Source: an uncultured Candidatus Saccharibacteria bacterium (GTDB lineage Bacteria > Patescibacteriota > Saccharimonadia > CAILAD01 > GCA-016700035). Taken from it: 64,000 nt of DNA. The DNA is taken from assembly GCA_964535385.1 (NCBI GenBank), contig CAZHSY010000002.1, positions 6,939-70,938 of the forward strand, read 5' to 3'. Position 1 is the stretch's first letter. Each line of letters opens with the position of its first letter. The position numbers were made by a program, and so were the translations under genes. The notes under the pieces are model-generated. The model did not search any database and was not told where the DNA came from. It saw only the letters and a program-made list of their open reading frames with translations. Positions 1,847 through 56,950 of the stretch are shown here, piece after piece.

Positions 1847-1940
1847 CCTCAAAAACCAGCGCTCTAAACCAAGGCCTGGCCTGCCTCAAAAACCAGCGCT
1901 CTAAACCAAGGCCTGGCCTGCCTCAAAAACCAGCGCTCGA
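1830..1940. repeat. tandem repeat, 3 x 37 bp (aaccaaggcctggcctgcctcaaaaaccagcgctcta)
   Basis: three contiguous near-identical 37-bp units at 1830-1866, 1867-1903 and 1904-1940; each contains the right arm of the palindrome; there are no spacers, so this is not CRISPR. Confidence 0.85.
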
Positions 1941-2098
1941 CCACTCCCACAATGTGCCCGCTTGTCTCTCGGTGATGCCGGTAAGTATTTCTCGTCTTAG
2001 GAGCGGAGTAAAACGTATATATAATTACGGTGTCGAGCACCGCAGACGAAAATACTTACCCAGCGCGCTGAGGACAAGTGGCCTTCAGGGCTCGCTGG
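1904..2098. repeat. dispersed intergenic element copy E1 (hairpin tail + GGTGATGCNGGTAAGTA + GCGTATATATAATTACGGTG core)
   Basis: shares an ordered series of motifs with copies at 23388, 33195, 34650, 41479, 56760 and a partial copy at 26675, all in the same orientation. Confidence 0.6.
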
Positions 2099-3505
2099 CT
2101 ACTTTATCTGAGACAAGGTCTCAGATAAGCCTTGCTGATAGGTCACGACCGCAACCTGCTCTTCTTTTAGAATCTGTAACTGCTTTTCAAGATCCTTGAG
2201 CGACGCCGCATATGAGCTGGCAGAACTATTATCCACCTCGTGATAGACCAGAATCAGCCATAGCTTGTGGTCTCGCGCAAAGCGTACAGCCGTCGCAACT
2301 TCTTCGGGTTTAGTATCGACTTCAATATTCATAACCTTGAGGTTATAGCGGTCATAGTCGGCGGTATTAAAACCAGTGTCTGTCGTACGCATGCTCTGGT
2401 AGCACTGCTTGATCTTGGCGCGAGAAAGATTATTTGTCCGACCATACGGAGCGGCAAAGTTATTAGTCTCGAAACCGTAGTAATCATTCAGTACCGCGTG
2501 ACTCTCGGCTAGTGTCTTCGTGATAGCCACACTACCAAGTCGCGAAAGATCCTCGTGATGGGCTGTGTGCGAACCAATTTCATGGCCTTTCGCCGAAAAT
2601 TCTTTTAGCATTTTAGACGTCATGTAGGAATTATCACCAACCACGCCACTAATCACGAACTGGGTCGTCTTGATGTCATACTTATCAAACAGTGGCATGC
2701 CGTTCTCGTATATCGAGCGCCAACCGTCATCGAACGTTAAGCTCACCAAGCCACGTTTGAATTGTGGTAAAGGCTGCTTTACGAGCTTATAGTCATCCGT
2801 CTGCAAAGTACCGACGCCATCGAGTACGTGAGCCAGCTGAATCTTCTCGGTGAAAGCCGGTACTACGTATGAGCTTCGAAAAGTTTTCCAGGTTCCACCA
2901 GTCGATTCCAAGCTACCGAGCGTTACATAATAGTGACTACCATCTTGTTGAGTAATATCAACGATTACATTACTGGCTGCATCACTCTTATAATAGTCTT
3001 CAAAGCGAAGGTACTCACCTGGCGCTACAGCAATCGGCTCCGATACCCACTTGGCATCGCCATCATCACGGCTAGTCACGGTAACTTTGAGTGAGCCCTG
3101 GTCGGTCCGACCGTCACGATCCACCGTGGTAGCCGCTGCAATACGACCATACTGATTAGATCGCCAGCCCGCTGGCAATCCCTGTGCATCGAGGACAGTA
3201 AAGGACGCGTTTGCTAAGAGATTAGTACCCGTCACTGGTACGGCACTAGGATCTCGATATGGTAGTGTCGTCCATAGCGAATCGGTCATTGGGTTGCCAT
3301 AGGTTAATTGATCATACGAGCCATCCTGTAGCGTACACTCCGCCGAAGCCGTAATCCTGGCCAGTTTCGACTGACTAGAAGTCGTAGCTGCAACCCTGTT
3401 GTAACCAGCTTCGAGGAGCGGAAAGATATGGTAACCCAAGAATAGCAAAGCTAGAGCATACATCAGTATGTTTCCCGCTTTGCTTCCGAATTTCTGTATT
3501 TTCAC
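2099..3505 (-). CDS. polysaccharide deacetylase (NodB homology domain) with N-terminal membrane anchor
   Basis: NodB motifs TFDDG, HTAHHEDL and AAPYG; signal anchor plus beta-sandwich domain N-terminal to the catalytic domain. Confidence 0.8.
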   Translation of the reverse strand: MKIQKFGSKAGNILMYALALLFLGYHIFPLLEAGYNRVAATTSSQSKLARITASAECTLQDGSYDQLTYGNPMTDSLWTTLPYRDPSAVPVTGTNLLANASFTVLDAQGLPAGWRSNQYGRIAAATTVDRDGRTDQGSLKVTVTSRDDGDAKWVSEPIAVAPGEYLRFEDYYKSDAASNVIVDITQQDGSHYYVTLGSLESTGGTWKTFRSSYVVPAFTEKIQLAHVLDGVGTLQTDDYKLVKQPLPQFKRGLVSLTFDDGWRSIYENGMPLFDKYDIKTTQFVISGVVGDNSYMTSKMLKEFSAKGHEIGSHTAHHEDLSRLGSVAITKTLAESHAVLNDYYGFETNNFAAPYGRTNNLSRAKIKQCYQSMRTTDTGFNTADYDRYNLKVMNIEVDTKPEEVATAVRFARDHKLWLILVYHEVDNSSASSYAASLKDLEKQLQILKEEQVAVVTYQQGLSETLSQIK

Positions 3506-4614
3506 TGAACGGCTCCTGGAGTAATCTTATACCGGCGACCACTGGTTGACCAACCAACTTGGTGGGTCCGAAAACGACGCAAGATTACAACTTCAATAAA
3601 AGCCTTGAGATACAGGACCATATTGGTAACCCGCAGGAGGTAAAACAATGGGAAGGCCGACATAACATCCGCACGGCGGTGGGCTGCTGCGCCAAAAACC
3701 GCTGTCGCGAAGAAGATGGCAAAGTCCACGAGGAACGTGATTGCTAGGGCTGATAGCGCCCCACCACGTAACATCATGAGTGGAAAGAGCACCAAGATAT
3801 TGATGTAGTAGGCAAACATTTCAAGAATTTGGTAGCTCAAGTAGAGGTCGATTCGCTGAAAACCAAAGCCAATCTTACGATCGATAACTCCCTGCCAAAA
3901 GCCACGATACCAACGTGAAACTTGTTTGACATAGTCATTGAAGTCTTTAGGATCTTGAGTGAGAGTCTTGGCGCTCGGAATAAAGACGATCTTACCCAGC
4001 TTCTTTCGGTGAATCTGCAGGGTGATGTCGAAATCCTCTGTGAGGTTGCTGGTCTTGAAGTCCAGCTCATGCAATATATCAGCCCGGAAACAGCTGGTTG
4101 GGCCAGGGATAACTGGAATTACTCCCAGAACGTGCTGTAACCGGCGGCTAATCTCCTGCCCGAAACTATATTCATACGCCCGGTATTTAGAAATCCAGTT
4201 ACTCTTCATAGACTTCACATAGCCAGTCGCAGCCACATACTTACTCGGATCGAGATACTTCATAAATTCTTCGAAATAATTATGCTCGAAGAAACAGTCG
4301 GCATCGGCGATATGCACCCATTCATAGTGTTTTGCAATCTCGAAATGGTTCACGGCTTGCAGAATTGCACCGGCCTTGCCAGAGCGCTCAACAGTAAGCA
4401 CGTTACGGTCGAAGATGATTTCACGCGCCAGATTAGCTGTACCATCATCTGAGTTATCGTCAACTACATAAATATCGGCCATTGGCTGACCTGCAGCCAG
4501 GGCGGAACGAATCGTGTCCTGGATCACCAAAGCCTCATTGTGGCCTGGTATAATCAGGGCTAGCTTGCGCTTCGACTCAGCTTTTATAGGTTTTGGCATA
4601 ACATTTGGTGACAT
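3502..4614 (-). CDS. processive family-2 glycosyltransferase (PgaC/IcaA/cellulose-synthase-like)
   Basis: DDNSDDGT, DADCFF (DxD) and QVSRW (QxxRW) motifs; C-terminal TM helices; 4-bp overlap with the downstream deacetylase indicates an operon. Confidence 0.8.
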   Translation of the reverse strand: MSPNVMPKPIKAESKRKLALIIPGHNEALVIQDTIRSALAAGQPMADIYVVDDNSDDGTANLAREIIFDRNVLTVERSGKAGAILQAVNHFEIAKHYEWVHIADADCFFEHNYFEEFMKYLDPSKYVAATGYVKSMKSNWISKYRAYEYSFGQEISRRLQHVLGVIPVIPGPTSCFRADILHELDFKTSNLTEDFDITLQIHRKKLGKIVFIPSAKTLTQDPKDFNDYVKQVSRWYRGFWQGVIDRKIGFGFQRIDLYLSYQILEMFAYYINILVLFPLMMLRGGALSALAITFLVDFAIFFATAVFGAAAHRRADVMSAFPLFYLLRVTNMVLYLKAFIEVVILRRFRTHQVGWSTSGRRYKITPGAVQ

Positions 4615-4651
4615 AATTTATCAGACTCGTCAATACTTTTTAACGGGATGT

Positions 4652-4680
4652 ATAATACCAAAAATAAGTCATTTTGTCAA
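4652..4680 (-). promoter_or_regulatory. sigma70-like promoter TTGACA-17-TATTAT for the GT2-deacetylase operon
   Basis: on the minus strand, TTGACA (rc of 4675-4680), 17-nt spacer, TATTAT (rc of 4652-4657), about 40 nt upstream of the start at 4614; an extended -10 TGTATAAT on the plus strand (4649-4656) suggests a divergent promoter. Confidence 0.5.
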
Positions 4681-4933
4681 TAGTAAGCCCTGATTGGTCA
4701 CAATGCGACTTATTCCTGGTGCACTGACCGGCAAAGTCACTCTCCTATGAAATTTCACCATACTTCATGCACGCCTCGCTTTCATGCAGGGCTAGCGCTT
4801 TGGTCGGCATTATCAGGAAGTAACCCGATACTAGGTGAAAGCACGAGAGCACCAGGAAAGATGTCGTCTTGATCCGTCGCCTGACGGACGGAATGATGAA
4901 AGCCCCTTATAAAAACCCGGTATAATAAAACTT

Positions 4934-6873: not shown

Positions 6874-8288
6874 AAACCCCTACCAAAAAACACCCTACTG
6901 GCATCACCTTCGTGCAGGTCATCATTACCGGCACTGTACTCCTAGCCCTCTGCGTTTCTGTGGCGGCGATTGTCTTCAATACCCTACGATTCGCCACTCG
7001 CTCACAGCGTGCCGTCAGTGCTACATATATCGCCGAGGCCGGCATCAATTACTATCTCTGGCATCTCAGCCACAACGTCAATGACTACTGCGACGGCAAG
7101 GTTTGCGGCACTCTCGGAGCCGATGGCTACGGACCCTTCACCTATGACTTCAAAACTCCCGATGGCCGCAAGCAAGGCACCTACTCAATCTATGTAAAGC
7201 CACCCAGCGGCGCAAGCGCGTCAGTGACTGTAAAATCCGTCGGCAGTGCCATTGGTGCGACTGCTAAACGAACTTTGCAAGCCTCGATCGCCATCCCCTC
7301 CTTTGCCCAGTATGCCATCCTGACAAATACCGAGATCTGGATTGGTCCAAACGAAACAGTCGATGGCGCTCTACATAGTAATAGTGGCATTCACTTTGAT
7401 GGCACCGGCAATGATGTCATCTCTTCAGCTCAATCGACCTACCGGCCAAGCGCACAGTTTGGCGGCAACGGCACCGTTAAGAACGGTGTCTGGGGTAATG
7501 GCGGCCCGCAAAGCCTATGGCGCTTCCCAGTAAATTCAGTTGACTTTCAGTCTGTCACGGCTGATTTGCAGAAGCTTAAAACCGACGCCCAGAGTGGTGG
7601 CAGATATCTAGCCCCGACCAGTGCTGGTAACCCCAGCTCCAAGCTCGGCTACTACCTAGAGTTGCGCGGTGATGGCGGCATTGATGTCTATAAAGTTACT
7701 CGCGAACAATGTACTTCTATCACTCGCACCTTAGTCCAGACCCTGTCACACCCAGCTAACAATATCCTCTATGTCGACGATAATGTCTGGATCCGCAGTA
7801 AGCCAAATGAAAAGATGCCAGGGCGCCTAACTATCGCCGCCGCCTACCTGCCAACCAACGCCTCTACATATAAGTCCATCACTATCATGGGCGACATTCT
7901 CTACCAATCCAAAGATGGCAGTTCGGCACTAGGACTGATTGCCCAACAAGATATCAAAGTCTCACAGCAGGCGCCAACTAATATTGAAATCGATGCCGCC
8001 ATGCTAGCACAACAAGGTCACGTCTGGTACAACAAAGACACTTTAGCTGGCACGGACTGTGATCGCAGTGTCAAAAACTCCATCACCGTCTATGGATCAA
8101 TCGCTACCAATCTCTACTGGACTTGGTCAATCGTTACTGGCAGCGCGCCGAATTACACCACGATTGACGGCTATAAAAGCACGACCAATGGCTACGATAA
8201 GAATCTACGCCTTACGCCGCCGCCATCCTTCCCGCTAACTGGATCTTTCTCCATCCTCAATTACCGTGAGATCTTAACGGTTCCATAA
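6870..8288 (+). CDS. pilin-like protein (prepilin-type N-terminus, large globular domain)
   Basis: KKHPTG|ITFVQVIITGTVLLAL N-terminus; ATGA overlap with the upstream gene; third gene of the operon. Confidence 0.5.
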   Translation: MKTPTKKHPTGITFVQVIITGTVLLALCVSVAAIVFNTLRFATRSQRAVSATYIAEAGINYYLWHLSHNVNDYCDGKVCGTLGADGYGPFTYDFKTPDGRKQGTYSIYVKPPSGASASVTVKSVGSAIGATAKRTLQASIAIPSFAQYAILTNTEIWIGPNETVDGALHSNSGIHFDGTGNDVISSAQSTYRPSAQFGGNGTVKNGVWGNGGPQSLWRFPVNSVDFQSVTADLQKLKTDAQSGGRYLAPTSAGNPSSKLGYYLELRGDGGIDVYKVTREQCTSITRTLVQTLSHPANNILYVDDNVWIRSKPNEKMPGRLTIAAAYLPTNASTYKSITIMGDILYQSKDGSSALGLIAQQDIKVSQQAPTNIEIDAAMLAQQGHVWYNKDTLAGTDCDRSVKNSITVYGSIATNLYWTWSIVTGSAPNYTTIDGYKSTTNGYDKNLRLTPPPSFPLTGSFSILNYREILTVP

Positions 8289-8414: not shown

Positions 8415-8996
8415 CTACTTCCAGGAGGGGAAGAGCTTTTTGCGATAGATAAGGAAGGCTACAAGCGCACTACACAAGGTGAAGTAAATCGGAAAAAGTA
8501 TGGCTGCACTCCACTCCCAGATTGCAAACACACCAAACAATGAAGCGACTCCTTCGATAGCGAAGAAGAGTGGATCTTCACTTTTTGGCTCATGATAGGT
8601 TTTGACGAAAGTCGGAATATAGCCGACAACATCAGCCAGGATACCGAGCGCTATAGTGAGAAGACCATTCTTGGTGACGACATAAGCCACGAGTGCCAAG
8701 ATCCCGAGACCGAGACAATAAAGATCGAGTTTTGAAGTTCCCCCTATACCATACTTGAGCGACATACCAAGCAAATACGTGGCTCGGGCTAGGAAAATGA
8801 GAGCAAAGATCTGACCGGCAACATTATCTGAATGCAAAACCCCAAGGATACCGGCTAAACTAGCAAGCCAAACGATGAGACGGGTGACTCGATGTGGTTT
8901 AGCTGATAATCGGAGCATACTTTTAGTGTAGGAAATGGGTGAAATAAGCGAGAGTATGAGTGTACCGATGATCCAAAAGTTCATTTTGCTTTTCAT
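8415..8996 (-). CDS. multi-pass membrane protein, unknown function
   Basis: 193 aa, 5-6 hydrophobic helices. Confidence 0.4.
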   Translation of the reverse strand: MKSKMNFWIIGTLILSLISPISYTKSMLRLSAKPHRVTRLIVWLASLAGILGVLHSDNVAGQIFALIFLARATYLLGMSLKYGIGGTSKLDLYCLGLGILALVAYVVTKNGLLTIALGILADVVGYIPTFVKTYHEPKSEDPLFFAIEGVASLFGVFAIWEWSAAILFPIYFTLCSALVAFLIYRKKLFPSWK

Positions 8997-13795: not shown

Positions 13796-14118
13796 GCTTC
13801 AGGCTGGATTTCATTCCAGTAGCCATCAGGTTGTTGTCGGAAGAACGTCACTCGTTTGACCGTCTCATATGGATCATAGCTGTGTTCGACCCGCTGAGCA
13901 GCTCCTCGATGCACATAGTGTGTCTTGGTGTCGGTCACAGCCGGAGACTCTGAGCGTTCAATCTTGTACTTTTGGTTATCTTTCTCGAAGAAAATTGCTT
14001 CAATCTGAGCTTTGAGCTGTGGATGGCCCTCGATAGGCTCCGACTGGCGAATATGGTTGTCGATCGCGTACTTGGTATCAATCAGGTCAACCAACTCCTC
14101 CCAGGATCGGTCGCTCAT
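13783..14118 (-). CDS. hypothetical protein
   Basis: 111 aa; 4-bp overlap with the upstream Pro-rich gene. Confidence 0.4.
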   Translation of the reverse strand: MSDRSWEELVDLIDTKYAIDNHIRQSEPIEGHPQLKAQIEAIFFEKDNQKYKIERSESPAVTDTKTHYVHRGAAQRVEHSYDPYETVKRVTFFRQQPDGYWNEIQPEAMLG

Positions 14119-15614
14119 AGACTGGTCGCGATTCGAATTATTTCGTCTTGGCTCAGACCATGCTGACCCTCAAGCTTGTGTATCATGCCATTACTTATCC
14201 AGGCCGCTTGATTATCACCATACACATAGATCGTTAAACCCTCAGCTTGCAGTGCCAGATAGTCGGAAGTCTTAGGTAGTACATACTGTTCGAGCAAGGC
14301 TTGTGAGTCCCACTGCGTCTGCTGCTCGGTAACATTAAACGACTGACCGCCCTTAGCAACCTTATAGCTAATCGTGCCATCACTGGCACTCACCTGCCGC
14401 GACAATGACCAGCCGGTTGGGAGGTAGGCTGGGATCGCCACATTGACGCCAGAGCGCATGCCGGCTAGCTTCAGGGCTAGAGCTGGATAATTAGCTTGCC
14501 ACAAATAAGCCCCGAGCATAATTGCAGCAATTACTCCTAAAACTAAAGCGACCGGCTTAGCGGGACCGGCAGTAGCAGGCTTGACGAGATTAGCGTCCGT
14601 ACCAAGTGCAAGTTGCAAAGCAGCCTCACGGCTCATCGTAACGCCAGCAACCGTTGTGTCTGGAGTAGCTGCGGGCGTCGGTGCTGGAGTAGCCTGTGGT
14701 GCTGGGTAGGTAATCGGCGCGACGATACCATCTACACTACCATTACCGGTGTTTGGTGATGGATTCGGGGCTGGCGGCTGAGCAGCTACAGCTGGAACTC
14801 CTGTTGTCTTAGCAAGTGTTGGTGGAGCGGCTGCGATTGCGGCCGGAGCTGATGGATTCTGAACAGCTGGAGGCGCTGATGGCATGGGTGCGACAACGGG
14901 GACCGGAGCAGATGCTGGTAGTGATGGAGCTGAAGTTGGTAATGACCCTAGAGGCTTAACGGCGGACAGTTCCTTAAGCTCAGTATCGGTCAGCACGCTT
15001 TCATCTCTACTCTCAAGTGTTGGTATCTCAGAACCAATCTGCTCCTTCATTTCGGTCAGGGGTTGTACTGGGATTGGAGTCGGTGGTATTACCGGTGACA
15101 CCGATGCTTGAGGGATTGGTGGAGTTGGTGCTACAACCGGTGGAGCTGGGATAGGTGGAACCGCTACCGGAGCCGGAGGTACTACGGGTGGAGCTGGGAT
15201 TGGACTAGGTGGTGTGACTGGAGCTGGGATTGGACTAGGTGGTGTGGCTGGAGCTGGGATTGGAGCAGCCGGCGCCGGCATGATAGGGGCCTTAACCGGA
15301 TCAGTAATTTTCTCGGCTAGTGGAGGTGTTGGCGCTGGCGCAATTGGAGCTGGCGTTGGTACTGGAATTGGAACTGGAATTGGAGGAGAAGTTACAACCG
15401 GAGCTGGAATAGGTGCAGCGACAGGGGCAACTGGTGCAGGAACTGCCACTACTGTATCTGCAACGGGTTCAGGCTTAAGTACCCCAACCTTGGTCAGATA
15501 AGGCTTTTCTTCATTAACGTCAGCCGGCTGCCAAGGTGTCCCACAGTTTGCACAGAACACCTTCCCAGCTATGACGACTCTGTCTTTTTCTTCACAATCA
15601 GGACACTGTCGCAT
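14115..15614 (-). CDS. proline-rich membrane protein with N-terminal zinc ribbon
   Basis: CPDCEE..CANCG ribbon; about 250-aa Pro/Ala/Val-rich low-complexity region encoded by tandem 30-bp DNA repeats (15170-15270); single TM; folded C-terminal domain. Confidence 0.5.
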   Translation of the reverse strand: MRQCPDCEEKDRVVIAGKVFCANCGTPWQPADVNEEKPYLTKVGVLKPEPVADTVVAVPAPVAPVAAPIPAPVVTSPPIPVPIPVPTPAPIAPAPTPPLAEKITDPVKAPIMPAPAAPIPAPATPPSPIPAPVTPPSPIPAPPVVPPAPVAVPPIPAPPVVAPTPPIPQASVSPVIPPTPIPVQPLTEMKEQIGSEIPTLESRDESVLTDTELKELSAVKPLGSLPTSAPSLPASAPVPVVAPMPSAPPAVQNPSAPAAIAAAPPTLAKTTGVPAVAAQPPAPNPSPNTGNGSVDGIVAPITYPAPQATPAPTPAATPDTTVAGVTMSREAALQLALGTDANLVKPATAGPAKPVALVLGVIAAIMLGAYLWQANYPALALKLAGMRSGVNVAIPAYLPTGWSLSRQVSASDGTISYKVAKGGQSFNVTEQQTQWDSQALLEQYVLPKTSDYLALQAEGLTIYVYGDNQAAWISNGMIHKLEGQHGLSQDEIIRIATSL

Positions 15615-17624: not shown

Positions 17625-17627
17625 AGC

Positions 17628-18945: not shown

Positions 18946-19974
18946 TTAACGGTTACTCATCACACTCCGAATATAGTCGTCCAGATTCTCCAACGCAATG
19001 CCTGTGCCTCGGGCCACTGCCAGCATCGGCTCGTCGGCTACATAGGCTGGCACACCAGTAATCTTCGTCATCAGCTTATCAATATTGCGCAGCTGACTAG
19101 CGCCGCCAGTCATGACCATGCCACGGTCGATAATATCTGATGACAGTTCTGGTGGAGTCTGCTCGAGTACGTTTTTGACCGCTGCCAGGATACTATCAAG
19201 TTCATCCTGAATCGCCTGAGTTACCTCATCGCTGTCCAATTTAATCGTCTTCGGGAGGCCAGCAATCATATCACGACCCCGAATCTGCATAGTTAGTGGC
19301 ACTTCAAGCGGTAAGGCCGAACCGATTTCTTTCTTGATATCCTCGGCTGTCTGATCACCAATAATCAAGCCATATTTGCGACGAATATAGTCGGCGATGG
19401 CCGCGTCGATCTTATTACCACCAATCCGAACTGAATTCTGGGCCACAATCCCACCGAGCGAAAGAATCGCGACCTCGGTCGTGCCGCCACCTATATCAAC
19501 GATCAAGTTCCCTGCTGGCGCCGCGATTGGGACTCCGGCTCCAATTGCGGCTGCAACTGGCTCACGAATGATATGCGCCTTGCGAGCACCAGCAGCCATA
19601 GCCGCATCAATCACCGCCCGTCGTTCGGTCGACGTTACACCAGCCGGCACTGATATCATCAGCTCTGGCCGATTAAAACGGATATTACCCGAGACTTTAT
19701 CAATATAATGTTTAAGCATGGCTTGAGTGATGCGATAATCCGCGATCACACCGTCTTTCAACGGTCGATTCGCCGTAATAATATCCGGTGTGCGGCCCAG
19801 CATCTCTTTAGCTTCGTTACCGATGGCGACGATACGGTTATCATCCACCGAGACCGCCACCACACTTGGCTCATTGGCAACAATGCCCTTCTTCGGTACA
19901 TAGACCAAAGTATTGGCGGTGCCTAAATCAATCGCGATACGACGTTTTAACATATACCCTCTATTGTACTGCAA
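18946..19974 (-). CDS. MreB/Mbl-like actin homolog (second paralog)
   Basis: IAIDLGTANT, DIGGGTTEVA and VMTGGAS motifs. Confidence 0.85.
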   Translation of the reverse strand: MQYNRGYMLKRRIAIDLGTANTLVYVPKKGIVANEPSVVAVSVDDNRIVAIGNEAKEMLGRTPDIITANRPLKDGVIADYRITQAMLKHYIDKVSGNIRFNRPELMISVPAGVTSTERRAVIDAAMAAGARKAHIIREPVAAAIGAGVPIAAPAGNLIVDIGGGTTEVAILSLGGIVAQNSVRIGGNKIDAAIADYIRRKYGLIIGDQTAEDIKKEIGSALPLEVPLTMQIRGRDMIAGLPKTIKLDSDEVTQAIQDELDSILAAVKNVLEQTPPELSSDIIDRGMVMTGGASQLRNIDKLMTKITGVPAYVADEPMLAVARGTGIALENLDDYIRSVMSNR

Positions 19975-23174: not shown

Positions 23175-23189
23175 GTACCTCCTTGATCT

Positions 23190-23325
23190 CCACGCGGCTT
23201 ACTTTGAGTGCACTGGCCGGCGTTTTTCAGACTTCAAAAATCCTCGTCGTACCTAAATACGCCTGTGGTTTTTGAAGCGATCAACCTTGGCCAGCACTAC
23301 CCAAAGATAGCCCGGTACTAGGTGG
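23190..23325. repeat. left copy of about 136-bp inverted repeat
   Basis: about 94% identical to the reverse complement of 26757-26892; contains an internal palindrome cttcaaaaa..tttttgaag. Confidence 0.75.
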
Positions 23326-23387
23326 AGGCGCGAGGGCGCTGGATGTAGCGGGTATTGGGAGTCTCACAATGTACTGCAGGCCTGGCC

Positions 23388-23577
23388 TGACTCGAAAACC
23401 AGTGCCCAACCACTCTCACAATGTACCCGGTCATTTTGAGTGAGCTCTAGGTGAGTTTTCTGATAGGAGCGGAAGAAGGCGTATATGATAATACGTCGAC
23501 TGAGCACCGCTGCAGAAAAGTCGCCTGGAGCCACTCTAAAATGGGCGGCTTTCAGGACTCGCCGACTAGCCCTTAGT
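23388..23577. repeat. dispersed intergenic element copy E2
   Basis: caggcctggcctg hairpin + gaaaaccagtgcccaaccac + ggagcggaagaaggcgtatatgataatacg core; flanked by the direct repeat tctcacaatgtac. Confidence 0.55.
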
Positions 23578-24699
23578 TTAGTTAACTAAACTAAGGGCAT
23601 ACTCAGGCCACCACTCGCCAGCGCTCGGCCCGCCATTACAAGCCCCGTCCGATTCGCCCGGGTACTTGACCCACAGCACCGCATCCAGTGCCCCCTGGCC
23701 AGTCACAGCCCGAGGCACTTCACCGATCTTGCGGCCGGTCGGATTACACCATTCAAGATTCGGCGCCGGACCAGCACCATTACGGCTGCTATCAACCACT
23801 ACATGCAGACCACCCGTTAACTGGCTGATTTGCTGACCATACTGACGTGACTCAGTAGTGGTTAAGAAATTCGAAATATTCAAAGCAATACCATGCAGGT
23901 GCTCTACCCCAACTTCTTTCAGTCTACTAGCGATCTCGGCCGCAGTGTGCCAGCGAGCGTTACCTGCATCGAGATAGACATAGTGGTTCGGCGAGCTTGT
24001 TAGGGTCGTGATCGCAGTACGTAAGATATTTACCCGCTCCGCCTTCTGAGCACCAGATAAACATTCCCAGCCAGCCAAGGCATCTGGCTCGAGCAAGAAT
24101 ACCGCCTTACTCCCCTGTGAAGCATTTTGGATGGCTTGAATCCAGCTTTGATAAGCCGCGGCCGATGATGCGCCGCCAGCTGAGTAGCTACCACAATCAC
24201 GTACCGGAATGTTATACAGCACAAAAACTGGTAACGCCCCTTGAGCCCGCATATTACTGAGCTCTTGGGTGGTGGCTGCTCCAATATTACTCTGCCAATC
24301 ACCCAGCCACACCGTGACTGGAGTCTGAGCGATTCTTCGCATGACAGCAGCGTCGGCAGCTCGAGTGCTCGACCACTCCGCTACCGTAACCTGGGCTGGA
24401 TTATCTGGATCCACAAAAAGCTTAGCACCCACAAATGGATTCGCCCGGGCAACAGCGGCTGGCTGGCTGGCCTGACCATGGACACTAGCAGGGGTCGCTA
24501 TTTCAGTCGGCGTCAACTGCGGTGCGGGCGTGGGAGTAGTCTGATTTGCCGCCAGGAGCTGTACTGAATTATTCGCGGCCCGCTTGCGAGCCAGCAATTC
24601 ATGCAAGCCAACCGCCCCATTCATCCCGCCCAGTACATATAGTACCGCCACCAGCCAGACCACAATGAGACTACGCCACGACCGAATATTCATCTTCAC
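23578..24699 (-). CDS. glycoside hydrolase family 6 (cellulase/cellobiohydrolase-type), secreted
   Basis: both GH6 signatures are present: VLYNIPVRDCGSYSAGG and VFLLEPDALAG; C-terminal VLWVKYPGESDG; N-terminal signal anchor. Confidence 0.85.
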   Translation of the reverse strand: MKMNIRSWRSLIVVWLVAVLYVLGGMNGAVGLHELLARKRAANNSVQLLAANQTTPTPAPQLTPTEIATPASVHGQASQPAAVARANPFVGAKLFVDPDNPAQVTVAEWSSTRAADAAVMRRIAQTPVTVWLGDWQSNIGAATTQELSNMRAQGALPVFVLYNIPVRDCGSYSAGGASSAAAYQSWIQAIQNASQGSKAVFLLEPDALAGWECLSGAQKAERVNILRTAITTLTSSPNHYVYLDAGNARWHTAAEIASRLKEVGVEHLHGIALNISNFLTTTESRQYGQQISQLTGGLHVVVDSSRNGAGPAPNLEWCNPTGRKIGEVPRAVTGQGALDAVLWVKYPGESDGACNGGPSAGEWWPEYALSLVN

Positions 24700-26342: not shown

Positions 26343-26674
26343 GGATGAAAACTCCATTAAACTTATTTTACTTAATGTCAAGTAAGCATAAGTGCTGTTA
26401 ATACAACTTAAAACGAGGGAAGAAGAGACTTTTACGTCGCTTCTCACCCTCGTTTCAATGGCATAATAATAGCAAACTTAAGCGTATTTGTCAATAGTTT
26501 TCAGAGTACAGTTTTACGGAGTCTTTCTTACGCTAGGTGCAATTCACCAAAGGATAAGCCCGCATAAAATAGAGACTATATGTATACGAAAAGCTCCTCT
26601 CTCAGTGCCCAACTACCCCATGTCAGCACCCAGCAATATGAGTGAGTCAGAATTGACTTTCTATGTATGGATCA

Positions 26675-26735
26675 CAAGAAAGCGTATATCTAATTATGGT
26701 AATGAGCACAGTGAGAGATAAATAAGTTCACCACC
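26675..26735. repeat. partial copy (E7) of dispersed element core
   Basis: agaaagcgtatatctaattatggtaatgagcacagtgagag matches the GCGTATATATAATTACGGTG..GAGCAC core. Confidence 0.4.
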
Positions 26736-26756
26736 AGTCCCATTGCCCTCGCGTCA

Positions 26757-26892
26757 CCACCTAGTGCCGGGTTACTCTGGGTAGTGCTGGCCAAGGTTGA
26801 TCGCTTCAAAAACCACAGGCGTATTTAGGTACGACGAGGATTTTTGAAGTCTGAATAACGCCGGCCAGTGCACTCAAAGTAGACCGCGTAGG
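26757..26892. repeat. right copy of about 136-bp inverted repeat
   Basis: reverse complement of 23190-23325 with about 8 mismatches; abuts the xseB stop. Confidence 0.75.
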
Positions 26893-26894
26893 GA

Positions 26895-33162: not shown

Positions 33163-33194
33163 CCTCGCCCTCCTTATTATCTCTCAGTCTAAGC

Positions 33195-33350
33195 CACTTA
33201 TGGTACAGTCGGCAAGTATCTACGCGGCTTATTTCTGGTGATGCTGAGTGATATTTATCATCGAGGAACGCAGTAGGGCGTATATGCAAATTACGGTGTC
33301 GAGTGCCGGAGAAGAAAATGCCGCTCAGCGCGCTCTAGGGTGGGCGGCCT
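33195..33350. repeat. dispersed intergenic element copy E5 (lacks leading hairpin)
   Basis: ggtgatgctgagtga..ggaacgcagtagggcgtatatgcaaattacggtgtcgagtgccgg..cagcgcgctc. Confidence 0.5.
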
Positions 33351-34543
33351 TAAGAGCGAGCTAGTTCCAAAGCCTTGTTGAGCTGCGGATCTTGATCCGC
33401 ATTATAATCCTCATTCGTCAGCTTCACTTCCACATCCGGCTTAATACCTTCCTTAGATATGTTGACGCCATTTGGGGTGTACCAGTGAGCGACCGTGATC
33501 TTCACCTGACCGCCGCTATCGAGCGGTTTCACTTCTTGGACACTTCCCTTACCGAAGCTCTTCTCGCCAACTAGCGTGGCGCGACCTTGGTCCTTGAGGG
33601 CGCCGGCTACAATTTCGGAAGCCGAGGCTGAGCCGCCGTTAATAAGTACAATCAGTTTTACGTTCGTCAGATTACCACCTGGATTAGCTACGAGCTTACG
33701 AGATTCAAAGTGGCGAGAGCGCTCTTCGACGACCGTGCCAGAAGCTAAGAATTCTGAGCTAACCGAGACAGCGCTATCAAGATACCCGCCAGGATTGTCG
33801 CGTAAGTCCAGGACAACTGACTTCACACCCTTGTTCGCCAGGTCAGTCGCTGCCGTTCGAATAGCTTGATCGGTATCATCACCAAAACGGCGCAACCGGA
33901 TGTAACCAACATTACCATCCTTAATCTCACTTTTGACGCTCGATACTTGAATGACCTGACGTTGAATCTCAAGTTCAATTGGCTTATCAGTACCACGTAT
34001 AACAGTAAGTTTTACGCTTGTGCCTTCCTGTCCGCGGATTTTCTTGACGGCTTCGTCGAGCGTTAATTGGCTGCTATCTTGCCCGTCAATCAAAGCGATC
34101 ACGTCACCCGATCGCAAGCCAGCTTTAGCGGCCGGTGTATCGTCAATCGGCGAGATAACTGTCAGCCGATTATTCTTCAGGCCGACTTCGACACCGATGC
34201 CAGAGAGCTTACCCTGCAAATCATCGCTCAAGGCCTGGGCTTCACTCTTATCGAGAAAGACCGTATATGGGTCGCCTAGACTCGCAACCAGCCCTCGAAT
34301 CTGACCTTCAGACAGCTTTTGCGGATCAACATCGCCATCGAAATTATTCTTAAGTAACTGTTGGACATGGCCTATTTCGGCGGCGTTCACCCCATTTTGT
34401 CGTATCCAGCCATAGGTGCGACCAAACCAACCACCAGCCCCACCGATGAGGATACCGATGACCAGGAAAAGGCCCAAGAGGAGATGACTGGACTGCTGCC
34501 ACTGACGGGCTAACCAGCCTTTGCGGGATTTCTGTTCTTTCAT
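33350..34543 (-). CDS. ctpA: carboxyl-terminal processing protease (S41 family)
   Basis: PDZ domain and S41 catalytic region GGSASASEI..K; N-terminal TM. Confidence 0.8.
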   Translation of the reverse strand: MKEQKSRKGWLARQWQQSSHLLLGLFLVIGILIGGAGGWFGRTYGWIRQNGVNAAEIGHVQQLLKNNFDGDVDPQKLSEGQIRGLVASLGDPYTVFLDKSEAQALSDDLQGKLSGIGVEVGLKNNRLTVISPIDDTPAAKAGLRSGDVIALIDGQDSSQLTLDEAVKKIRGQEGTSVKLTVIRGTDKPIELEIQRQVIQVSSVKSEIKDGNVGYIRLRRFGDDTDQAIRTAATDLANKGVKSVVLDLRDNPGGYLDSAVSVSSEFLASGTVVEERSRHFESRKLVANPGGNLTNVKLIVLINGGSASASEIVAGALKDQGRATLVGEKSFGKGSVQEVKPLDSGGQVKITVAHWYTPNGVNISKEGIKPDVEVKLTNEDYNADQDPQLNKALELARS

Positions 34544-34649
34544 TGCATCTATTGTACCGTGTTCGGACAGCCTCTTGAAGTTCTTTCTAGTCTGACATGC
34601 AAAACTGAGAGCTGACTGAGATTAGAAGTTAGTTTGCGCATTGCCGACC

Positions 34650-34840
34650 AGGCCTTGAAGCCAAGACCTGGCCTGACGGAGAAACCAGCGCCCAACCACC
34701 CCATGCTTGCGTCGAGTCATCTTTGGGTGATGCTGGTAAGTACTTATCGTTGAGGAGCACAGACAGGCGTATATAATTACGGTGATTGTGCACCATAAAC
34801 GAAAATACTTATCCAGCACTCCCAGAGTGGGCCGCCACTA
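34650..34840. repeat. dispersed intergenic element copy E3
   Basis: degenerate hairpin ccaggccttg-aag-ccaagacctgg + gagaaaccagcgcccaaccac + ggtgatgctggtaagta + gcgtatataattacggtg. Confidence 0.55.
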
Positions 34841-35959
34841 GTGAATGAAAACCAAGGCCGAAGCGGGCCAGATAGACTGTGAGTACCGCCCATCCCAATT
34901 AGCATTAAACTCCGACACCACCACCGACTGGCCGTTATTCACCACCCCCTCCACAATCATAACGTGACCATATTCACCAGCTGTATAGACGCCAATAGCA
35001 CCGACTTCGGGCTTATCATCGACTTGAATAGAGAAAAGTTTAGCCCAGTTTGGCCAATCCTTGGCATTAGCCGGCCCGAGAAATCCCCAAGCTTGGATTG
35101 GTTTACCTAGCTGCGCCCGGCGCCAGGCAGCATAGCTCGTACACTGCCGATAATAGAATCCCCAAGGATCGACGCCCATACTTGGAAATGGTTCAGCTGA
35201 AGCCCAAGGATATTCCGAGGTTAATGAGTAGTTACGCCCAGCGCTCTGCGCCATAACAGCTGCCGACTGCTGAGCCCGCAAAACCTCCAACTTTTGCTTA
35301 TCACCACTCACAAGAGCCTGGTAAAGTTGCTCCTCACCGTGGGTTTTATCGAGAATCTCTTGAATATCGGCCTGCTTTTTCGAGATCGACTTAATAGCTA
35401 GTTGCTCCTCTTGCTCGCGAATCGCCAACTGATTACCTAAAGTATCAAGTGTCTTCCGTGTCTCGCGAATGGTTTTCAGCGTGCCGTCAATTTTCTGTCG
35501 CATGGAGCTGTAATACTCTTGGCGACCAACGAACTCGCTTAAATTCGTGGAGCTAGCCAGCACTTCTAGTATGCTCATATTGCCATTTTTATAGAACGAA
35601 GCAATGTTTTGTCCAAGTAAGTTTTCTTGCTCACTCAGCTTTATCTGATTTTCCGACTGCTGCTGCCGTATCCGTTGAAGTCTTAAACGGGTTACATCCA
35701 GATTCCCCTGAGTAGCCTTCAAGTCAGCTTGAGCCACTACCATATAATTACTGAGTGTATCGGCCTCAGCTGACTTTTGATTAGCGATTGCCTGATTCTC
35801 GGATATCTGCTTGGTCACGGCATCAATGAGGGGCTGAATCTCGTCAGCTCGCGCAGATTTATGATGCCAACTAAAAACCGCCGCTCCGGCACCAGCTAAA
35901 AGCAGGAGGAGACTGAAGATAAAAACGTGTCTTTTTGTTTGTCTTTTCATGATTGCCAT
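34838..35959 (-). CDS. PcsB-like coiled-coil + CHAP-domain peptidoglycan hydrolase
   Basis: signal peptide, about 200-aa coiled-coil, C-terminal CHAP (CTSYAAWRR..GHVMIVEGV). Confidence 0.6.
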   Translation of the reverse strand: MAIMKRQTKRHVFIFSLLLLLAGAGAAVFSWHHKSARADEIQPLIDAVTKQISENQAIANQKSAEADTLSNYMVVAQADLKATQGNLDVTRLRLQRIRQQQSENQIKLSEQENLLGQNIASFYKNGNMSILEVLASSTNLSEFVGRQEYYSSMRQKIDGTLKTIRETRKTLDTLGNQLAIREQEEQLAIKSISKKQADIQEILDKTHGEEQLYQALVSGDKQKLEVLRAQQSAAVMAQSAGRNYSLTSEYPWASAEPFPSMGVDPWGFYYRQCTSYAAWRRAQLGKPIQAWGFLGPANAKDWPNWAKLFSIQVDDKPEVGAIGVYTAGEYGHVMIVEGVVNNGQSVVVSEFNANWDGRYSQSIWPASALVFIH

Positions 35960-38070: not shown

Positions 38071-38233
38071 ACTGAAAGCACCTCAAATCCCCGGGCATAG
38101 CTCAAACTCTCAGCTCGAGGCGAGTTCAAGGCAGCGCCAAGGAACGGAGTAAGACGTACACGGTAGTACGGCGCACGAGTACCGGCGGCGCTAACGCCGA
38201 AATCACCCAAGCTTTGTGCTGCCAATGAAGTCC

Positions 38234-40274: not shown

Positions 40275-40284
40275 GCCGTGCGAT

Positions 40285-40318
40285 CAGGCCAGGCCTTGGC
40301 TCGCCAAGGCCTGGCCTG
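40285..40318. repeat. REP-like palindrome caggccaggccttgg-ctcg-ccaaggcctggcctg
   Basis: perfect 15-bp arms between the convergent murA and prfB. Confidence 0.8.
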
Positions 40319-40362
40319 CAACAACCATCGTGTCATCTTGAACTCGTTTCAGGATGACAGCT

Positions 40363-41445: not shown

Positions 41446-41478
41446 AAGTTTTCATTATACCGTACCTCGACAACGTTG

Positions 41479-41690
41479 CAGGCCAGGCCTTGGCTCACCA
41501 AGGCCTGGCCTGACGAGAAAAACAAACCCAGTGCTCGGCTACCCCACCTAGTACCGGGTCTTTTTGAGCGAGGTCCAGGTGGGGTTCTTTGCTAGAAGCG
41601 GAGGGAAGCGTATATGTAATACGGTGACTGAGCACCGGGGCAGAAACGCCACCTGGGGCCGCTCAAAATGGGCCGCATCGTGTAACAGAA
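41479..41690. repeat. dispersed intergenic element copy E4 (perfect hairpin + core)
   Basis: hairpin at 41479-41512, then gagaaaaacaaacccagtgctcgg, then agcggagggaagcgtatatgtaatacggtgactgagcacc. Confidence 0.55.
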
Positions 41691-41702
41691 GAAGTTAAAA
41701 CT

Positions 41703-41729
41703 AAAAAAGCCCCTTAAGGGGCTTTTTTA
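41703..41729. terminator. bidirectional rho-independent terminator
   Basis: aaaaaagcccctt/aaggggctttttt perfect 13-bp palindrome. Confidence 0.7.
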
Positions 41730-41745
41730 GTTTTAACGATCGTTT

Positions 41746-42921
41746 TTATTTAACGATGTTTTTGAGGGCGTCTTTCAGACCCTTCCGGCTCTTCCGGTAG
41801 AAGTAACCAGCGTAGGTCAGGCCGCCTGTACCCATCAAACCAGCAACACCGGCTTCAACACCAGTCTGGGGTAGTGAAGGGGTTTCAGGAGTAGGGGTCA
41901 CAGTTGGAGTTGGCTTAACAGGAGTAGTTGGGGTAGGAGTTGGGGTAGTCTTACCAGCTACCGTGACTTTCGTCTGGGCAGTGTTAAAGTACTCACCCAT
42001 GCCCTGTGGCTTTACGACAGCAACGTTCTTGAAGGTGTAATCACCAGCTGGAAGGTTGTTGTTGATCTTAGCCTGGAACCACACAAAGCCGTTAGAACCA
42101 GCAGTGTAGTTACCAACATTAACGCCACCAGTAGTGACATTGTCAGAGTTGATCTTGATACCATTTGGGTTAGCAGCGTTCTTCAACATGGTCGTACCAG
42201 GCACATACGTAACATTAGCTGGCATATTGTCAGCGATAATGACGTTGTTCAGCGTGGTATTGCCTTCGTTTTTGAACGAGATCAGGTACTCGAGCGTGTC
42301 ACCAGCCTTGGCAGTGTTCTGGGTAACCCAGTCCTTCTGGCCAAGTACACGGACTTGCTTTGTGACTGATACAGCTGGAGTCTTTACTCGAGCTAGGACA
42401 GTTACGTTAGCCTCGAAGTTGAAGCAAGGCTTTTCGTTACCAAGCACGATACCACCGTTTACAACCTGGTCACTGATCTTATCAGTTACCCAGTTTGGAG
42501 CTTCGTTGGTACCAGTGTTGTGACGCCACTGAGCTGAGCCGGGAATGTATTCCAGCTGGCTCTGGTCGAGGGCGAGATTAACGTTTGCAGTGTCGACAAC
42601 GGTATTGCTGTTGTCAGAGCTGACCGTACCTTTTACAACTTGGGCTTTGCCAGCTGCAGTAGGAAGATCGATTTTTACTTTGAGGTTTTCGGCAACTTTA
42701 TTAGAGTTGGCTTCTTCTTTGTTGTGGTACCAGATTTGCACCTTGACCACTTCATCAGTTTTAGCACTGACAGACTTCTTGTATGTCGTATCACCGGCAG
42801 TTTGGTTAGCAACGGCGGTACGAGCTTCGATCGCAACTTGACCGGCAGCGGCACTTACAGCTGGCATAGCGATAAGGGCAGTAGCAACGGCGAGGTTACG
42901 AAGAGTAGTAGCAACTTTCAT
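41746..42921 (-). CDS. LPXTG-anchored surface protein with Ig-like/DUF11-type repeats
   Basis: signal peptide; C-terminal LPQTG + hydrophobic segment + RKSRKG tail. Confidence 0.7.
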   Translation of the reverse strand: MKVATTLRNLAVATALIAMPAVSAAAGQVAIEARTAVANQTAGDTTYKKSVSAKTDEVVKVQIWYHNKEEANSNKVAENLKVKIDLPTAAGKAQVVKGTVSSDNSNTVVDTANVNLALDQSQLEYIPGSAQWRHNTGTNEAPNWVTDKISDQVVNGGIVLGNEKPCFNFEANVTVLARVKTPAVSVTKQVRVLGQKDWVTQNTAKAGDTLEYLISFKNEGNTTLNNVIIADNMPANVTYVPGTTMLKNAANPNGIKINSDNVTTGGVNVGNYTAGSNGFVWFQAKINNNLPAGDYTFKNVAVVKPQGMGEYFNTAQTKVTVAGKTTPTPTPTTPVKPTPTVTPTPETPSLPQTGVEAGVAGLMGTGGLTYAGYFYRKSRKGLKDALKNIVK

Positions 42922-52619: not shown

Positions 52620-52654
52620 CCCCTCAAAAATAACATCTCAAAAGATTAACCTAT

Positions 52655-52740
52655 CAAGTATATCAGATTAGGAATTAGAGTTTAGAAGTTAGAAGCTAGG
52701 AATTAGCGAGCCTAACTCCTAGCTTCTAGTACTTGATCTC
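52655..52740. repeat. second intergenic repeat family (looser copy)
   Basis: ttaggaattagagtttagaagttagaagctaggaattagcgagcctaactcctagcttctag. Confidence 0.3.
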
Positions 52741-53087
52741 TAATCAGTCTCCAGACTGCGCTTGAGTGTAAACCGGCGTGGCTGAGATTTAACTTTATAC
52801 TCACGGATCTGGTGCTTAAGCTTAGCTTCAACTACGTCAACTGCGCTGTGTGGATTAATCGTCGCTGTCTCAGCCACCATTGTCGCGCCGCGGACTTCTA
52901 CTTTGGCTAGCACTCGATAACGCTTGGCCGGCTCAGCCGTCTCCTGGCGCTCAACTTCAATCTGCATACTCGTCGGTTGATGCTGGCGAGGAAAATACCT
53001 ATCGAGCTTGGACAGCTTACGCCCTATGTAGTCCTGCAATTCAGCTTCGACTTCGTACTTCCGGCCAGTAATAGTAGTAGCTATCAT
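52740..53087 (-). CDS. hpf: ribosome hibernation promoting factor (HPF/RaiA family)
   Basis: 115-aa sigma-54-modulation/YfiA fold pattern; 4-bp overlap with serS. Confidence 0.75.
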   Translation of the reverse strand: MIATTITGRKYEVEAELQDYIGRKLSKLDRYFPRQHQPTSMQIEVERQETAEPAKRYRVLAKVEVRGATMVAETATINPHSAVDVVEAKLKHQIREYKVKSQPRRFTLKRSLETD

Positions 53088-54316: not shown

Positions 54317-54353
54317 ATGCCCTCTTTCTTAATAGCTTTATTTTACACGAGTT

Positions 54354-55901: not shown

Positions 55902-55998
55902 AGTATATTCCTATCTTATAGTAACCTTGCCTTCATGAGAAACCAAAAGCCACCTGGGTTTGACTCAGGTGGCTTTGCTTCAAGTCGTCTGCTAGTAC

Positions 55999-56460
55999 TT
56001 AGCTAACTCTCTTGATCTTGTAGGTCATTGTACCGACTGGTACTTCGACTTCCACCTCTTCGCCCGGCTTACGGCCGAGCAATGCCTTACCGATCGGACT
56101 CTCGTTTGAGATCCGACCTTCTTGTGGATTAGCTTCGGTCGAGCCAACTATCTGGAAAGTCTGTTCGCCAGTCTCAAGCTCAACATGTACGGTCGAACCA
56201 ACCTGTACACTATCAGCCTGACCTGGCTCAATCGCTACAGCGTTCTTCAAGATATGTTCGATCTCGGCAATTCGACCTTCTATAAAAGCTTGGCGTTCTT
56301 TGGCATCATCCCAACTCGCATTTTCTGAGAGATCACCAAACTCCTTAGCTTCCTTGAGGGCCGATGCAATTTTCTTACGCTGAACCTGCACGAGATCATT
56401 CAGTTCTTCGCGTAGTTTCTGCAGACCTTCTTCAGTTACGAGAAATTCTTTCTTTGCCAT
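55999..56460 (-). CDS. greA: transcription elongation factor GreA
   Basis: 153 aa; N-terminal coiled-coil plus C-terminal FKBP-like domain. Confidence 0.85.
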   Translation of the reverse strand: MAKKEFLVTEEGLQKLREELNDLVQVQRKKIASALKEAKEFGDLSENASWDDAKERQAFIEGRIAEIEHILKNAVAIEPGQADSVQVGSTVHVELETGEQTFQIVGSTEANPQEGRISNESPIGKALLGRKPGEEVEVEVPVGTMTYKIKRVS

Positions 56461-56759
56461 AATTAGTTTCCTCCTTAAAAATCACCTGGCCCATGGAAAA
56501 ATCAATTCCCCAAGTAAAAAAGGCCCGCGGTGCAAGACCTTAATTTCCATTTTGATCCAGGTTGTAATCCTTTGGCTGGAAGGTATTATGGAGCATCACA
56601 ATCCCCCGGTCAAGCTATGTACTTTTTGGCTCCCATGCGACTTACTTCCGATGCACTGGGCGGGGCTAGTGCCTTGCCCAGTGCATCGGAAAGTAACCCG
56701 GCACTAGATGGAAGCGCGATGGCACTGGAGGTAAGAGACTGCGAAGGTCTTGTGTAGCT

Positions 56760-56950
56760 TGGCCTCCTTGACAATCCTATTGCAATGCCCAGCCACCCCC
56801 ACTCGGTACCCGATTGTCTCTCAGTAATACTGGTGAGTATTTCCTCTCAAGGAGCGCGAGGAAACGTATATATAATTACGCTGGTGAGCATTGGAGAGTA
56901 AAATGCTCACCAGCGCGCTGAAGACGAACGGCGCTCAGGACTCACCGACG
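56760..56950. repeat. dispersed intergenic element copy E6
   Basis: agtaatactggtgagtatttcctctcaaggagcgcgaggaaacgtatatataattacgctggtgagcat..atgctcaccagcgcgctgaagacgaacggcgct. Confidence 0.55.

Follow-up and report, generated by a model that had tools for sequence, protein, structure and literature searches.

The element and its copies in the window

We analysed 64,000 nucleotides of contig CAZHSY010000002.1, from an uncultured Candidatus Saccharibacteria bacterium (hereafter, the window), and a structured element that is dispersed between its genes. An earlier note on this DNA had described seven intergenic repeats, about one per 9 kb and all in the same orientation, whose first module was a GGCCAGGCCTTGG palindrome. 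We propose that these repeats represent a previously undescribed, Saccharibacteria-wide element of 120-200 nt, and that the copies are probably non-autonomous palindromic insertion elements that behave like the Rickettsia palindromic elements (RPEs).

The seven repeats are real, with shared ordered motifs, and lie close to where they had been placed. We aligned them (alignment A1; mean column identity of 58%, with a CGTATAT core that is invariant across all seven) and used the alignment as an nhmmer query on the window, which recovered the seven with E = 3e-53 to 3e-29. A degenerate pattern for the core matched the window five times, always on the plus strand (expected in shuffles: 0.00). Because the ordered motifs, the alignment, the pattern scan and the hidden Markov model agree, this is a repeat family beyond chance similarity. 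Seven was too low a count, as a scan of the window without filters using a covariance model (R1) added c8 and the degenerate copies B1 and B2. The total is ten: eight that are strong or had been reported (c1-c8), and the two degenerate ones. In order along the window, with an associated remnant (bits are covariance model scores):

c1: 1906-2099, plus strand; begins with the leader CCAGCGCTCGACCACTCCCAC, then has a long hairpin (apical core AGGAGCGGAG..CGTATAT..TACGGTG..GAGCACC) and a 3' tail that ends at the stop codon of a polysaccharide deacetylase gene; nhmmer E = 3e-53, 59 bits
B1: 23182-23388, minus strand; degenerate, near full-length, head-to-head with c2; nhmmer E = 8e-9, 17.7 bits
c2: 23368-23566, plus strand; 3' end adjoins the stop codon of a GH6 gene; 76 bits
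c7: 26596-26745, plus strand; partial and degenerate; nhmmer E = 3e-29, 18 bits
B2: 26750-26894, plus strand; degenerate, in tandem after c7, near-identical inverted twin of B1
c3: 33179-33364, plus strand; occupies the whole ctpA-pyrG spacer, with its tail overlapping the ctpA stop codon; 54 bits, nhmmer E = 1e-37
c4: 34651-34849, plus strand; palindrome like those termed repetitive extragenic palindromic (REP) at the 5' end (34645-34675), tail overlapping the stop codon of a CHAP/PcsB-like gene; 59 bits, nhmmer E = 4e-48
c8: 38112-38216, plus strand; between ftsE and ftsX and antisense to both; the general short form, common in other genomes; 80 bits with E = 2e-21, the best-scoring copy
c5: 41485-41692, plus strand; bears a REP-like palindrome (41479-41512); next come a bidirectional terminator-like hairpin (41694-41737, from a terminator scan) and a DUF11-like gene; 66.5 bits
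Remnant: 56672-56728, minus strand; leader-like, inverted, upstream of c6, recognised by a repeat search and by-eye comparison with the leaders of B1 and c5
c6: 56739-56949, plus strand; ends 8 nt before the stop codon of a PBP2 gene; 49 bits, nhmmer E = 1e-47

Nine copies are on the plus strand and one, B1, is on the minus strand, and the remnant is also inverted, so the orientation is not uniform as had been claimed. The density is about one copy per 6 kb, higher than first estimated. Saccharibacteria genomes are about 1 Mb and have very little spare DNA; about 3% of the window is this single element family. All copies in the window are intergenic, and most have stop codons in the frame that is used by coding copies in other genomes (described below).

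A strand-specific three-way junction

Folds of single sequences share one architecture across all genomes. The closing stem (P1) is 10-20 bp long and differs in sequence between copies, including copies of the same genome. It encloses a long hairpin (P2) and, in long forms, a second hairpin (P3) that is framed by GCGG and GCAGG. Near its tip, P2 has a CGUAU stem-loop; beneath this is a covarying 2-bp helix, with a 5'-GGA/5'-GA loop on one side and a 5'-GA/5'-GA loop on the other. For example, the upper part of P2 in the fold from locus L011 runs, from base to tip, through GG/CC, an A opposite an A, AC/GU, the 5'-GGA/5'-GA loop, the covarying 2-bp helix, the 5'-GA/5'-GA loop, and a stem that is closed by a loop of 4-8 nt. 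In c1-c7, which form a variant particular to this lineage, P3 is cut to a short tail (GGGCGGC..CAGGACTCGCC) and a leader of about 30 nt (CCAGYGCCCAACCACYCCCAC..GTACCCGG) is added, often with a REP-like palindrome before the leader. L018 has a nested or tandem pair (730-942, minus strand), in which the second copy, complete with a closing stem of its own, occupies the position that P3 of the first would have.

The fold is supported by two alignments. In 24 sequences with a hand-drawn P2 (A2), 86% of cells are paired, versus 28-42% if the partners are slid, and there are 152 double-change cells, versus 50 in shuffles. For 36 long-form copies (A5), RNAalifold returned the P1/P2/P3 three-way junction with 59 pairs, 53 of which have compensatory double changes. 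In this alignment, 90.8% of cells are paired (at most 40% with slid partners), and the covariation score is 0.70 (versus 0.24), a value that none of 500 shuffles reached.

The fold is also specific to one strand. Within A5, G·U or U·G pairs outnumber A·C or C·A pairs by 169 to 49 (122 to 49 if two conserved wobble positions are removed), and G·U is the more frequent of the two at 37 pair positions versus 9 for A·C. The element strand is the more stable one in 36 of 36 copies, by a mean of 14 kcal/mol. In the window, the folding strand is the plus strand: c2 folds at -67.4 kcal/mol (z = -6.8) on the plus strand versus -47.6 on the minus strand, and c1 is predicted to fold at -70 versus -60 kcal/mol.

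The hint of a conserved RNA fold in the earlier note is thus borne out by strong covariation and a clear strand asymmetry, and the perfect 10-bp stem that it saw in c6, which is an alternative pairing there, is confirmed (ggtgagcatt at 56883-56892 with aatgctcacc at 56902-56911). Building an alignment and a covariance model and scanning related genomes, as it had proposed, gave conserved motif order, covariation, and many further copies; the comparison to Rfam that it proposed gave no family.

Distribution among Saccharibacteria

A scan for the exact pattern, with one genome per species, found 20 loci, mostly in genomes that are titled Candidatus Saccharibacteria, Saccharimonadales, or Patescibacteria. 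The same scan of metagenomes found 33 further loci. R1 identified 67 copies in these 53 loci, and two or three copies per contig are common. A few metagenome-assembled genomes that are titled Gammaproteobacteria or Bdellovibrionales also match the pattern; we suspect that these bins are mislabelled. The match in L004 (Bacteroidales) sits inside a gene and looks like chance. We also considered a viral origin and rejected it: the sole viral contig (L022/L054, from IMG/VR, 60.5 kb) matches the core pattern and is not recognised by the covariance model, so that match is probably due to chance or is a very diverged copy.

At Rfam's gathering threshold, the sole match was a tRNA and none was to the element. 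Scans with E up to 5-10, using three copies from the window and two long-form copies, gave chance matches only. Our search of full-text literature found no account of such a structured RNA, repeat, palindromic element, or miniature inverted-repeat transposable element (MITE) in Saccharibacteria.

Copies inside protein-coding genes

In L033, a dus open reading frame (ORF) of 438 amino acids reads through two copies of the element with no stop codon, and solved Dus structures are without precisely these two segments. Dus homologs from Saccharibacteria fall into three length classes (313-330, 365-385, and 433-438 amino acids). In an alignment of Dus proteins (A4), peptides encoded by the element are found at four independent sites, are present or absent by lineage, and in one case are partly deleted. 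R1 scores the DNA of the dus inserts at 56-96 bits. There are also in-frame copies in rsmE (L049) and in a Mur-ligase-like gene (L005). These are six independent in-gene events, and all are sense-oriented, share one frame, are free of stop codons, and have lengths that are multiples of 3 nt. The encoded peptide is of the form ..QG..EERS.AYM...AGSAGRQA.. and matches no Pfam family. Of the intergenic copies, about half are interrupted in this coding frame by stops or by frameshifting changes in loop length. We found no genes that were split by out-of-frame copies. All of the in-gene copies are from related genomes and none is within the window.

At the second dus site, both arms of P1 lie inside the inserted DNA. 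The orthologous inserts at this site in four lineages keep the full three-way junction via compensatory changes that alter the peptide. In AlphaFold2 models of Dus, both inserts are unmodelled (predicted local distance difference test score, or pLDDT, below 50) and the adjoining C-terminal part is mostly at pLDDT 70-90. Such a result is compatible with disordered surface loops, although it does not decide the matter. The in-gene copies are most likely translated as tolerated loop insertions.

Many other copies adjoin the start codons of lepA, xthA, gltX, dnaG, or a HAD hydrolase gene, with the frame open into the gene. In L013, L018, L040, L027, and L019, the 3' half of the element often overlaps or directly precedes the downstream start codon (of lepA, xthA, gltX, dnaG, and a pilin-like gene), and a GGCAGG motif lies at the position expected for a ribosome binding site, a few bases upstream of the start. 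ORF callers yield N-terminal extensions of 40-60 residues in these cases, which may be spurious or real.

Gain, loss, and age of copies

To compare orthologous spacers, we obtained contigs from syntenic relatives via their CtpA homologs: L057 (72% CtpA identity) and L056 (88%). In L057, the element is missing from every orthologous spacer that we compared, and ftsE and ftsX abut with no spacer. L056 has diverged copies at the c4 and c8 sites, which are 52% and 63% identical to the window's copies, respectively. Four-fold degenerate sites are saturated between the window and L056 (32-41% identity). Since c4 and c8 retain this identity despite saturation, some copies are old and under partial constraint; gain or loss has affected others. 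We had initially inferred rapid decay from the weak matches in L056, and we withdrew this given the saturation. At the c5 site, L056 (2861-3091, orthologous to 41446-41745 of the window) lacks the long hairpin, and its leader runs directly into the tail, with the join precisely at the hairpin's base (..GGCCATTT/ATGGGTGG.., with the slash at the junction); this could be either an empty site or a clean deletion of the hairpin.

B1 and B2 share 95% identity across about 150 nt. Their flanks are unrelated and show no direct repeat that would indicate a target-site duplication. This combination points to a recent copying event in the genome of the window. We had also considered a diversity-generating retroelement for this 120-nt inverted pair, but the pair is simply B1 and B2.

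Orientation and neighboring genes

Each of the copies c1-c6 ends 0-55 nt from a gene's stop codon:

c1: 2099-3505, minus strand; polysaccharide deacetylase with a carbohydrate-binding module
c2: 23578-24699, minus strand; GH6
c3: 33350-34543, minus strand; CtpA
c4: 34838-35959, minus strand; CHAP/PcsB-like
c5: 41746-42921, minus strand; DUF11-like
c6: 56957-58801, minus strand; PBP2

All six genes are on the minus strand, so the folding strand of the element is antisense to them. According to Pfam, all six encode exported or cell-envelope proteins. We did not see this association at the loci from other genomes, and the clustering may be a mere reflection of local gene content. A signal in the 3' untranslated regions of genes for exported proteins was rejected because the folding strand is antisense and because the neighbors in other genomes are unrelated. 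A TnpB/IS605 guide RNA was considered and rejected as well, as copies adjoin the 3' ends of genes for proteins of 370-470 amino acids, but Pfam shows these to be the deacetylase, GH6, CtpA, CHAP, DUF11-like, and PBP2 proteins.

Outside the window, the element is opposite to both flanking genes in 17 cases and in the same direction as both in 15 cases, and the remainder are mixed. Neighboring genes are unrelated across genomes, and in the mraZ-rsmH spacer, the element is in opposite orientations in L006 and L008. Copies on one contig are often co-oriented, with exceptions. GC skew changes sign with respect to the element from one locus to another, so we rejected a link between its orientation and replication, which the earlier note had proposed to test. 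Given the mixed orientations, the unrelated neighbors, and the variable skew, neither a cis-acting element that follows gene direction nor a motif that is oriented by replication is a general explanation. The idea of an oriented architectural motif is not supported: one copy in the window is inverted, and in other genomes the element takes either orientation with respect to genes and to GC skew.

We found no promoter that recurs upstream of the element at a constant distance. The sole sigma-70-like candidate in or upstream of it, TTGAGG-16-TATAAT inside c4, is at chance level. Terminator-like hairpins on the element strand follow some of the copies. The hairpin after c5 is a perfect 20 bp, preceded by an A-run and followed by a T-run, and resembles a bidirectional intrinsic terminator.

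REP-like palindromes and a RAYT-like gene

The GGCCAGGCCTTGG palindrome, which had been taken to be the first module of the element, is a distinct repeat. A perfect palindrome of 34 nt (CAGGCCAGGCCTTGG..CCAAGGCCTGGCCTG) recurs in the window, either attached to the element or alone:

1813-1925: array of GGCCAGGCCTTGG / CCAAGGCCTGGCC palindrome halves that includes three tandem 37-nt units and abuts c1
34645-34675: at the 5' end of c4
40284-40319: REP-like palindrome on its own, distinct from the element
41479-41512: at c5
63490-63525: REP-like palindrome, likewise on its own and distinct from the element

Each of the three tandem 37-nt units (1835-1945, just upstream of c1) consists of a palindrome half and the start of the element's leader, which suggests slippage or repeated partial insertion.

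In L063, which carries the element, there is a gene for a Y1 transposase similar to the REP-associated tyrosine transposases (RAYTs). It lies between ruvC and ruvA, and it matches Pfam's Y1_Tnp above the cutoff (32.5 bits) and NCBIfam's REP_Tyr_transpos below the cutoff (E = 2.5e-11). This gene has a 25-nt palindrome on both sides (8110-8134 and 8799-8825), which differs from the element and is not adjacent to the copies of the element in L063. We found no RAYT gene in the window or at the other loci. A RAYT gene that is flanked by palindromes is the hallmark of REP-RAYT systems, so by analogy, the GGCCAGGCCTTGG palindromes may be the REPs of the genome of the window.

Unrelated repeats in the window

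Two minus-strand genes (18946-19974 and 60296-61489) share stretches with 74-78% nucleotide identity (repeat families D4, D7, and D17) and look like paralogues. At 14905-15440, repeats of 30-36 nt that are rich in GGN codons lie within a 499-amino-acid ORF (14115-15614, minus strand).

A probable insertion element that behaves like RPEs

We think that the copies are probably non-autonomous palindromic insertion elements because the element is palindromic, about 150 nt long, dispersed, present or absent at a given site, and either intergenic or in-frame within housekeeping genes, and because it has no transposase of its own. It would have spread by copying into new sites, mostly in intergenic DNA next to the ends of genes, and within coding sequences only in-frame, stop-free copies in a single orientation are seen. 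We suspect that it is mobile and selfish, and that its single-stranded fold has been retained because it is needed for propagation, whether as single-stranded DNA or as RNA. For the copies in the window, the sole effect on the host might be a stable hairpin in, or against, the neighboring transcripts.

Several observations weigh against this proposal. We found no transposase in the window or at the other loci, no terminal repeat that is conserved between copies, and no target-site duplication, so we infer mobility indirectly. The inserts at the second dus site maintain their full fold by compensatory changes over deep divergence, which implies selection or ongoing correction of the palindrome at individual loci; a dead selfish insert would need neither, and this would fit a functional RNA. 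(Template-switch "correction" of quasi-palindromes together with selection at the level of the element is one possibility.) The conserved asymmetric loops are unlike a plain DNA palindrome. The translation of in-gene copies is a prediction, and AlphaFold leaves the inserts unmodelled. Finally, the orientation bias in the window (9 of 10) is strong and is not accounted for by the proposal.

As an alternative, the element may function as RNA: it could be a noncoding RNA module, a signal for processing, a bypass element, or an element akin to introns. One version is that the copies are genes or modules for structured noncoding RNAs that benefit the host and are transcribed on the element strand; they could be protein-binding scaffolds, or processing signals that are freed by cleavage of P1. 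This version would account for the very strong covariation, the strand-specific fold (including the z-score of -6.8 for c2 on the plus strand), the conserved loops near the tip of P2, the retention of the fold by orthologous copies across deep divergence, and the terminator-like hairpins on the element strand. However, there is no promoter at a fixed upstream distance and no relative in Rfam, and copies that lie inside ORFs in one fixed frame, copies in tandem or nested within each other, presence/absence variation, and the many degenerate copies would be unusual for a housekeeping RNA, so we consider it unlikely. A broader version, to which we give slightly less credence, is a class of functional structured RNAs in the mRNAs and intergenic transcripts of Patescibacteria that would be excised, cleaved, or bypassed via P1, or would serve as a protein-binding module, with selection keeping the junction intact at each locus, coding sequence included.

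How the element moves is a related question. It could be an element similar to REPINs (paired REPs) or PATEs (palindrome-associated transposable elements) whose folded single strand of DNA is moved by a Y1 (HUH) transposase, of the RAYT or IS200-IS605 type, that the genome has in single copy. That the fold is specific to one strand and tolerates G·T would be explained, as would the lack of copy-conserved terminal repeats and of target-site duplications and the usual co-orientation of copies on one contig. REP-like palindromes abut several copies in the window, and a Saccharibacteria genome with the element encodes a palindrome-flanked RAYT-like protein. But since the palindrome beside that gene differs from the element and is not beside its copies, mobilisation by a Y1 enzyme is a hypothesis at this point, and a rather improbable one: neither the window nor the other loci have a RAYT gene, genomes differ in how the element is oriented with respect to GC skew and to genes, and REPs and REPINs are extragenic while this element is also found inside genes.

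We are more doubtful that the element is an intervening sequence that acts at the RNA level (a small intron, a ribozyme, or a translational-bypass element), with P1 joining the flanks and with intergenic copies that arose by spread or are relics. P1 does pair the two ends of every insert, 6 of 6 independent in-gene insertions are in the sense orientation, and compensatory changes have kept the fold within coding sequence. Introns are also reported to be frequent in the tRNA genes of Patescibacteria (PMC13011429). Yet removal at the RNA level would not require any frame, and the in-gene copies are all multiples of 3 nt and stop-free in one frame, which about half of the intergenic copies are not. 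Also, the element does not match models for group I introns, group II introns, or known ribozymes, and many copies are antisense to the surrounding genes, including all of the strong ones in the window.

Finally, a cis-acting mRNA element (a 5' leader, a riboswitch, a thermosensor that sequesters the start codon, or a 3' stabiliser or terminator) is very improbable: P1 or P3 overlaps a downstream start codon on the same strand in several genomes (lepA, xthA, gltX, and the HAD hydrolase), with GGCAGG a few bases upstream of these starts, and six copies in the window abut stop codons of genes for envelope or exported proteins, but the folding strand in the window is antisense to every gene that it abuts, the neighbors are unrelated across genomes, and the element is in opposite orientations in the mraZ-rsmH spacers of L006 and L008.

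Comparison with known systems

RPEs are palindromic repeats of about 100-150 bp that are dispersed, either between genes or in-frame within unrelated housekeeping genes, and they have no known transposase (PMC10969869). The Saccharibacteria element is likewise a palindromic element of about 100-200 bp with many dispersed copies in a host-dependent bacterium with a small genome. It too is found both between genes and inside unrelated housekeeping genes, where it is in-frame and encodes a conserved peptide, and no transposase is known for it. The host is not Rickettsia, however, but belongs to another phylum (Patescibacteria), and we liken the two by their behavior, with RPEs taken from their published description. 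The element also differs in forming a three-way junction with conserved asymmetric loops and strand-specific use of G·U, in having a closing stem that varies between copies, and in that the copies in the window are all intergenic, most with stops in the coding frame. We suggest, by analogy, that the element works like an RPE, and we do not claim that it is one.

REP and REPIN-RAYT systems are similar in being abundant, long-persisting hairpin repeats that are thought to act as single strands, and the palindrome-flanked RAYT-like gene in one relative and the REP-like GGCCAGGCCTTGG palindromes in the window add to this likeness. But REPs are 20-40 nt, REPINs are symmetric doublets, and both are extragenic, whereas the element is larger, asymmetric, branched, and also intragenic, and it does not flank the RAYT gene.

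Bacterial MITEs and other structured repeats insert in either orientation and can create ORF fusions (PMC10969869). The MITE-like nature that the earlier note had raised stands in part: the element is multi-copy, is present or absent at orthologous sites, includes a 95%-identical pair, and is inserted in-frame into genes of relatives. Like ERIC, BOX, Correia, and QMITE repeats, it is short, non-coding, and multi-copy, and transcripts of such repeats form long stable hairpins. On the other hand, we found no terminal inverted repeats that are shared between copies, no direct target duplications, and no related insertion sequence, and what is conserved is the internal fold and not the termini.

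Large noncoding RNAs such as raiA, ROOL, HEARO, and OLE also have multi-helix folds that are supported by covariation and are restricted to certain lineages. The element differs from these in that it matches no Rfam model, even with E up to 10. RNAs of this type are not known to occur as in-frame inserts in protein-coding genes.

Implications

The element affects annotation: it inflates or splits ORF calls through false N-terminal extensions, and it gives rise to length variants of conserved proteins in catalogues that are derived from metagenomes. The strong, strand-specific covariation, which extends even to coding sequence, makes the element a good candidate for a new mechanism of single-strand transposition or for a new RNA function. 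If our preferred explanation is correct, then protein-coding palindromes like RPEs would have arisen independently in a second lineage of reduced, host-dependent bacteria, and the Saccharibacteria would provide a second system for studying the movement of these elements and their remodelling of essential proteins, such as Dus with its four insert sites.

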